Origin: Terriglobia bacterium
GTDB lineage: Bacteria; Acidobacteriota; Terriglobia; UBA7540; JAPUME01
Assembly (NCBI GenBank): GCA_965237895.1
Contig: CBDEGR010000001.1
Coordinates: 99,906-163,905, forward strand
Direction of reading: 5' to 3'
DNA: 64,000 nt
The position numbers and the translations under genes were made by a program. The notes under the pieces were generated by a model. That model ran no database searches, was not told the origin of the DNA, and saw only the letters and a list, made by a program, of their open reading frames with translations. How positions within the stretch are numbered: the stretch's first letter is position 1; every line of letters begins with the position of its first letter. This document shows, piece by piece, positions 55,167 to 55,286 of the stretch.

Positions 55167-55286
55167 GGCTGGCTGGCTGGCTGGCTGGCTGGCTGGCTGG
55201 CTGGCTGGCTGGCTGGCTGGCTGGCTGGCTGGCTGGCTGGCTGGCTGGCTGGCTGGCTGGCTGGCTGGCTGGCTGGCTGGCTGGCT
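55167..55286. repeat. Perfect tetranucleotide microsatellite (GGCT)30
   Basis: 30 uninterrupted GGCT units counted from the sequence (equivalent to 10 x WLAG in the artefactual ORFs). Intergenic: 107 nt upstream of the prx start (55060, minus strand) and 244 nt upstream of the hsp20 start. Confidence 0.97.

Follow-up and report, generated by a model that had tools for sequence, protein, structure and literature searches.

To our knowledge, hypermutation at simple repeats has been studied almost only in host-adapted pathogens. In the on/off contingency loci of Haemophilus and Neisseria, the repeat sits either within a reading frame or in the stretch that separates a promoter's −35 element from its −10 element. 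The modA phasevarions of these two genera follow the first arrangement: their repeats lie in the reading frame and act as a frameshift on/off switch, and for Neisseria modA slippage of the AGCC unit, present in 21–37 copies, has been documented (PMC2667262). In nadA of Neisseria meningitidis, by comparison, 5–12 TAAA units lie just upstream of the core promoter; NadR operators lie on both sides, the tract junction carries a site for IHF, and the number of units sets promoter strength through the spacing of the operators and polymerase contacts that flank the tract (PMC2791445). For Helicobacter pylori sabA, a mononucleotide T-tract adjacent to the −35 element is proposed to tune expression in a graded manner, rather than switching it, via local DNA geometry (PMC4081817). 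Finally, the VNTR loci used for MLVA typing are intergenic and without demonstrated function; their flanks are conserved, copy number is strain-specific, and interruptions occur at one edge.

The locus described here lies in a 64-kb stretch of DNA (the window, which we analysed as a whole) from an uncultured Acidobacteriota species known from metagenome assemblies. Between a peroxiredoxin gene and a divergent hsp20 gene, positions 55167–55288 form an uninterrupted (GGCT)30.5 tract of 122 nt, as both direct reading and Tandem Repeats Finder attest (period 4, 30.5 copies, 100% matches, 0 indels, score 244). It is thus a simple sequence repeat in the usual sense, a unit of 1–6 nt repeated head to tail. 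An earlier note, made from the sequence alone, had recognized a perfect GGCT tract at this site. It counted the 30 whole units at 55167–55286 correctly but missed two further in-register bases, GG, so that the true end is 55288. Its distances to the genes are correct: the tract begins 107 nt from the start codon of the peroxiredoxin gene (ATG at 55060, minus strand), and 55286 lies 244 nt from that of hsp20 (ATG at 55530). It also had the tract directly abutting a very AT-rich block, which is imprecise: ∼110 nt separate the right end of the tract from the GC minimum, GC content being 42–59% in the windows starting at 55250 and 55300, 29% in that starting at 55350, and lowest, at 19%, over 55400–55499. 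The unit is that of modA, since the minus strand reads (AGCC)n, the reverse complement of GGCT, and the copy number compares with the 21–37 copies there; unlike the modA repeats, this tract is intergenic.

A tract of this kind is exceptional in its own surroundings. It is the one long simple repeat in the 64-kb window, where Tandem Repeats Finder detected no second one (the runner-up tetranucleotide is GCCG in four copies), and there is none in the relatives' flanks beyond the window. To place it more broadly, we searched for (GGCT)8 in one genome per species across 185,579 species; the source species is not among the matches listed. At least 119 stretches of eight or more units were found. 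The 124 tracts listed with at least eight units have a median of 12 units, and 30.5 units falls near their 97th percentile. Carriers among the matches listed include Streptomyces, Neisseria, Gilliamella, Legionellaceae, Moraxella, and others, together with a Metamycoplasmataceae MAG (60.5 units) and two Vicinamibacterales (Acidobacteriota) MAGs. Sorting the tracts of other genomes, these two MAGs included, into coding and intergenic by open stretches was dropped, as it is ambiguous in high-GC DNA. In Escherichia coli K-12, no tetranucleotide exceeds four copies, and (TGGC)n, the GGCT repeat in another register, is the commonest short tetranucleotide repeat (PMC7015867). The earlier note held that long perfect tetranucleotide tracts are rare in bacterial chromosomes; they are indeed uncommon, yet not without these at least 119 stretches. 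The GGCT tract is therefore unusual but has precedent.

The position of the tract relative to the two predicted promoter regions, which lie back to back in the spacer (Table 1), bears directly on what it could do. With a peroxiredoxin transcription start predicted near 55106, the tract would span about −61 to −182, starting 25 nt upstream of the predicted −35 hexamer. Its other end lies 83 nt before the RpoH-like motif and 167 nt before the hsp20 σ70-like promoter. By these predictions it occupies the middle of the spacer, outside both core promoters. The earlier note had placed it in a promoter region and, by analogy with Haemophilus and Neisseria, had raised phase variation. On/off phase variation is not supported: the tract is intergenic, lies outside both predicted core promoters and the reading frames, and on the hsp20 side is at least 83 nt from any promoter element. 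Given this position, classical on/off switching, whether through core-promoter spacing or through the reading frame, is excluded. An effect on the spacing or phasing of upstream elements, which the note also suggested, is a possibility.

Table 1. Position of the GGCT tract, its flanking genes, and predicted promoter elements (window coordinates)
Feature	Position	Strand	Basis and remarks
Peroxiredoxin gene (AhpC/TSA), with N-terminal signal-like segment and in-frame TGA	54482–55060	−	Pfam AhpC-TSA
Predicted peroxiredoxin σ70-like promoter, TTGTGA-17-TATAAT	55113–55141	−	Consensus scan, 10/12
Proximal flank, tract to peroxiredoxin −35, 25 nt	55142–55166		Alignments; poorly conserved
GGCT microsatellite	55167–55288		Direct reading and Tandem Repeats Finder
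Right flank of tract, no recognized element	55289–55371		82–84% identity to distant relatives
RpoH (sigma-32)-like motif upstream of hsp20, CTTGAA-N13-CTTATAT	55372–55397	+	Pattern match, lead only
Predicted hsp20 σ70-like promoter inside AT-rich block, TTGACA-17-TATTAT	55456–55484	+	Consensus scan, 11/12
hsp20, alpha-crystallin family small heat-shock protein, 153 aa	55530–55991	+	Pfam PF00011
clpB N-terminal remnant, 221 aa, downstream of hsp20	56075–56740	+	

Conservation across the spacer is uneven. Eight aligned sequences cover the predicted peroxiredoxin promoter, and in every one of them both of its hexamers are unchanged. On the hsp20 side, the −35 hexamer is invariant in six of six aligned sequences, and the −10 hexamer differs in L003 and L208; these are the only hexamer changes among the aligned relatives. 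As aligned, identity to distant relatives reaches 91–96% over the peroxiredoxin core promoter and 5′UTR and 89–91% over the hsp20 σ70-like promoter and 5′UTR. It drops to 28–76% over the 25-nt proximal flank, the least conserved segment, which has a 10-nt deletion in L208, L210, and L211. No conserved operator was seen in this flank in the alignments to relatives. Judged by these alignments, the tract has grown where the intergenic region is under least constraint.

Other candidate elements in the spacer deserve brief comment. The RpoH-like motif, called against what we take to be the sigma-32 consensus, is a single match in the window against 0.02 expected, for a pattern picked after the sequence had been read; its TTGAAT part is kept in all covering sequences, and its −10-like part is variable. 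Sigma-54 promoters require GG-N10-GC, and a candidate of this type in the TGGC units was rejected by inspection, as the repeat gives GG-N11-GC. Rfam families have no match in the whole window, and hence the spacer holds no known RNA element. A search of the intergenic region for inverted repeats found none flanking the tract and gave AT-rich pairs in the AT block only. This block (55400–55500) has 19–29% GC against mostly 50–65% around it and houses the hsp20 σ70-like promoter; a perfect 12-nt inverted repeat (55424–55435 and 55474–55485) overlaps the hsp20 −10 hexamer with its second arm. The block with its inverted repeat may be a regulatory or curved-DNA element.

The strongest evidence on the nature of the tract comes from its relatives. 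Orthologous regions were taken from public assemblies via members of the same 90% protein clusters. Two long-read assemblies, L003 (2.9 Mb, ERZ28763718) and L004 (1.35 Mb, ERZ26167216), are 99.3–99.7% identical to the window over ∼18 kb and thus represent the same species. Their tract flanks are identical to those of the window; the tracts themselves are not alike. L004 has 5.5 units (22 nt: one GGCA, two GGCG, and two GGCT units, then GG) in an intergenic region of 369 nt, and L003 has 20.5 units (82 nt: two GGCA, three GGCG, and 15.5 GGCT units) in one of 429 nt. The 122 nt of the window allele are pure GGCT in an intergenic region of 469 nt, and the differences in intergenic length equal those in tract length exactly. 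A further sample provides L006, an independent Illumina scaffold that differs from the window at 4 of 3422 nt (99.88% identity), in which a left flank identical to that of the window leads into at least 13 pure GGCT units and then the contig end. Between conserved flanks and at 99.3–99.9% identity, copy number is therefore 5.5, 20.5, 30.5, or at least 13 units, as in a VNTR. Genomes 0.3–0.7% apart differ six-fold in tract length, and the tract is hypervariable relative to its surroundings.

Outside this clade the tract is missing. All six more distant relatives aligned (L007, L208, L209, L210, L211, and L212) lack it at the homologous site, where they read GGCAGGATGCG, TGCAGGCGGATGC, GGCAGGAGGGG, or similar and have GGCAGG-like sequence only; L007 is 94–97% identical to the window, and L208–L212 were judged by eye to be more diverged in the alignments. 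Farther out still, JGI metagenome contigs scanned with the peroxiredoxin protein gave relatives at best 69% identical and no further tract alleles, and the 80 distant peroxiredoxin-homologue loci among them (282 kb) contain no simple repeat of 20 nt or more. Because the six more distant relatives are without it, the tract is derived and recent; by this comparison it is young, present only in the 99% clade. The copy-number heterogeneity anticipated by the earlier note, which had proposed a comparison of related genomes, is thus found between sampled populations: unit number is not fixed and ranges from 0 through 5.5 and 20.5 to 30.5. The note was also right to set aside the ORFs translated across the tract as artefacts, because the 20.5- and 30.5-unit alleles are 40 nt apart, which is not a multiple of 3, and because six relatives lack the tract altogether. 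In its intergenic position, conserved flanks, strain-specific copy number, one-edge interruptions, and lack of a demonstrated function, the tract matches the VNTR/MLVA typing loci, unlike which it is a perfect 30-unit tetranucleotide tract, unusual for bacteria. It belongs to a known class, the bacterial microsatellites or VNTRs, and lies in a spacer upstream of promoters.

We consider it probable that the tract is a young, hypermutable microsatellite that grew by slippage from a GGCN proto-repeat in a dispensable spacer, where changes in unit number are tolerated. A short imperfect GGCN proto-repeat would have expanded by slipped-strand mispairing in replication, within one sublineage of an Acidobacteriota species. 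Gains and losses of 4 nt between the two divergent stress-gene promoters would then be tolerated because they disrupt no core promoter element or conserved operator. Their sole physical consequence would be to shift the DNA beyond about −61 of the peroxiredoxin promoter, together with the hsp20 control region, in 4-nt steps, with a GC-rich repeat filling −61 to −182. If expression is affected at all, the effect should be modest and graded rather than on/off. That slippage is the mechanism and that the changes are nearly neutral are both the most likely explanations rather than observations, and neutrality is suggested by the lack of conservation. Among alleles, the spacing between the two predicted promoter regions differs by 40 and 100 nt, or 3.8 and 9.5 helical turns, and helical phase is thus not kept. 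A tract starting at ∼−61 would, on the other hand, adjoin the region in which the RNA polymerase α-subunit and class I activators make contact, and an effect on the predicted peroxiredoxin promoter is possible.

Details of the alleles bear on this proposed origin. The variant GGCA and GGCG units at the 5′ edge look like what birth from a GGCN proto-repeat would leave behind. Close relatives keep these units, but the window allele consists of GGCT alone, the first unit included; thus, loss or conversion of variant units must also have occurred, and expansion at the 3′ side is insufficient by itself. Folded as single-stranded DNA, the GGCT strand reaches −32 kcal/mol, far below its shuffles (z = −5.8), unlike the AGCC strand (−6.1 kcal/mol); the model is crude, has no G–T pairs, and gives an odd structure of alternate pairs whose centroid is at 0 kcal/mol. 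Predicted folding of the GGCT strand is compatible with hairpin-assisted slippage. The modA repeats, for their part, show ready slippage of this unit in tracts of comparable copy number (PMC2667262).

The main competitor to a near-neutral microsatellite, which we regard as unlikely, is a contingency locus or rheostat of the nadA type. With each change in unit number, distal elements in 55289–55400, be they operators, upstream RNA polymerase contacts, or the hsp20 promoters, would come to lie at another distance and helical phase from the peroxiredoxin core promoter, giving variants with low, medium, or high expression of the selenoperoxiredoxin, of hsp20, or of both. A tract that starts 25 nt upstream of the −35 hexamer matches the geometry of the nadA TAAA repeat (PMC2791445), also a tetranucleotide repeat just upstream of a core promoter (here a predicted one) whose copy number varies between isolates, as that of GGCT does among natural populations. 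Any GGCT effect would likewise act through distal–proximal spacing. The right flank is moderately conserved (82–84%), and both flanking genes belong to the stress response, where bet-hedging is plausible.

Several points weigh against this reading or set the locus apart from nadA. No recognizable operator flanks the GGCT tract on either side: the proximal flank is the segment that relatives conserve least and in some of them partly delete, and the distal flank, better conserved as it is, contains no recognized site. Alleles of 22, 82, and 122 nt, up to 30.5 units, go far beyond the 5–12 units of nadA, and once the distance reaches 100 nt, direct class I contacts are no longer made in any helical phase. 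Close relatives lack the tract, six of six outside the 99% clade, and so these genes are regulated without it. There is a single such tract in 64 kb, and the host is an uncultured Acidobacteriota species, not a host-adapted pathogen like that of nadA. A comparison with sabA shows both likeness and difference: both have a simple repeat by a −35 element and the sabA proposal is for graded tuning rather than switching, but the sabA repeat is mononucleotide (PMC4081817), whereas the GGCT unit has 4 nt and its 122-nt tract stands 25 nt from a predicted −35.

Phase variation in a distal, graded form is accordingly a minority possibility on the predicted layout. It is more doubtful still that slippage creates subpopulations differing in an exported selenocysteine peroxiredoxin, and perhaps in hsp20, which would make this a true contingency or rheostat locus in a bacterium with no known host association. 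Were the selenoperoxiredoxin promoter tuned by the tract in this way, bet-hedging based on simple sequence repeats would reach beyond host-adapted pathogens and take in the oxidative-stress defence of an environmental bacterium.

A structural role is, in our judgement, quite improbable. Under negative supercoiling, the tract might extrude slipped hairpins or form a weak two-tetrad G-quadruplex or i-motif, absorbing torsion and thereby insulating or coupling the two promoters. It is placed exactly between divergent predicted promoters, its strands are strongly asymmetric (GC skew +0.35), the G-rich strand is the one predicted to fold on itself (z = −5.8), and a G2N2 periodicity in principle permits two-tetrad quadruplexes. 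That folding, however, is predicted for a single strand and not for a duplex under torsion, and the DNA energy model that yields it has the odd pairing and null centroid already mentioned. Two-tetrad quadruplexes and CC i-motifs are weak at neutral pH. Stable i-motifs are stated to need at least five cytosines per tract (PMC7015867). Moreover, close relatives with the same promoters have no tract.

That the tract itself might be spurious can be set aside more firmly. It is real, because four independent assemblies, one of them short-read, carry it at the same site. Repeats that exceed the k-mer break short-read assemblies, and units can be miscounted in a long-read consensus; an artefact of assembly or polishing, in the tract or in its length, would fit the end of L006 within the tract and the 100-nt N run (L008 3890–3989) over the whole intergenic region of the short-read scaffold L008, but it is very improbable given four assemblies from different samples with identical flanks and differing interruption patterns and lengths, the pure GGCT start of the window allele confirmed by Illumina data, and the exact match between intergenic and tract length differences. 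The long-read copy numbers may err by a few units, not by 10–25 units or in the interruption pattern.

The value of this locus rests mainly on its clean natural allelic series and on the adjacent selenoprotein gene. Alleles of 0, 5.5, 20.5, and 30.5 units can be read from independent metagenome assemblies around an uncultured Acidobacteriota species, and the series appears to show how a bacterial microsatellite arose from a GGCN proto-repeat and grew. The tract is also a ready-made strain marker for the population and a known pitfall when this locus is assembled from short reads. The earlier note had called such a tract a classic trouble spot for assembly, and short-read assemblies do break or leave gaps here, as in L006 and L008. 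Short-read breakpoints fall inside the tract in L006 (1–52), in the AT-rich block, where L001 starts, and at the tract site, where L007 starts. The locus is a systematic breakpoint of short-read assemblies.

The peroxiredoxin gene carries a TGA at 54797–54799 (minus strand), at the position of the peroxidatic cysteine in FAFTGG-U-TRE, which we read as selenocysteine. Pfam AhpC-TSA matches both halves of the protein split at this codon. Of 80 metagenome homologues, 59 have the TGA in the FAFTGG-TGA-TRE motif (the remaining 21 gave no match to the motif), which points to a conserved family of selenocysteine peroxiredoxins with an N-terminal signal-like segment. Gene callers split the gene into an 87-aa piece and a piece of 84 or 101 aa. 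A 1650-nt Logan contig from SRR22804947 has an identical 87-aa peroxiredoxin N-terminus, which only ∼360 nt, containing a 35-aa ORF, separate from a Clp_N gene. The contig appears to lack hsp20 and part of the intergenic region and to be either a deletion variant or a misassembly.

On the other side of the spacer, hsp20 belongs to a protein cluster named Hsp20/alpha crystallin in an Acidobacteriota MAG. The clpB remnant that follows it ends just before the Walker A region and overlaps the end of a convergent homoserine dehydrogenase gene. In L007, clpB is full length (887 aa; L007 803–3466), its first 205 residues align with the remnant at 92%, and BLAST comparison indicates that ∼2.4 kb of clpB is missing from the window. 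In L008, clpB has at least 717 aa and runs to the end of the locus. The truncation is common to the window, L001, and L004, and in L003 the remnant is further split into ORFs of 97 and 71 aa. Because clpB is cut to 221 aa and the hsp20 −10 element is changed in L003, the neighbourhood looks to be under relaxed constraint, or decaying, in the tract-bearing clade. In L003 (9930–9960), that element reads TTTTAT against TATTAT in the window, with loss of the conserved A at position 2; together with the split clpB remnant, this change may reflect decay of the heat-shock locus.

L003 differs from the window in one further respect. An IS element at L003 6330–7661, absent from the window and from L004, lies between a Gluconate_2-dh3 gene and a DUF6807 gene, whose protein gave no match on exact look-up. 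The insertion site falls between the orthologues of window positions ∼53100 and 53250, and the element encodes a 443-aa transposase of the DDE_Tnp_1_4/DDE_Tnp_1 type.
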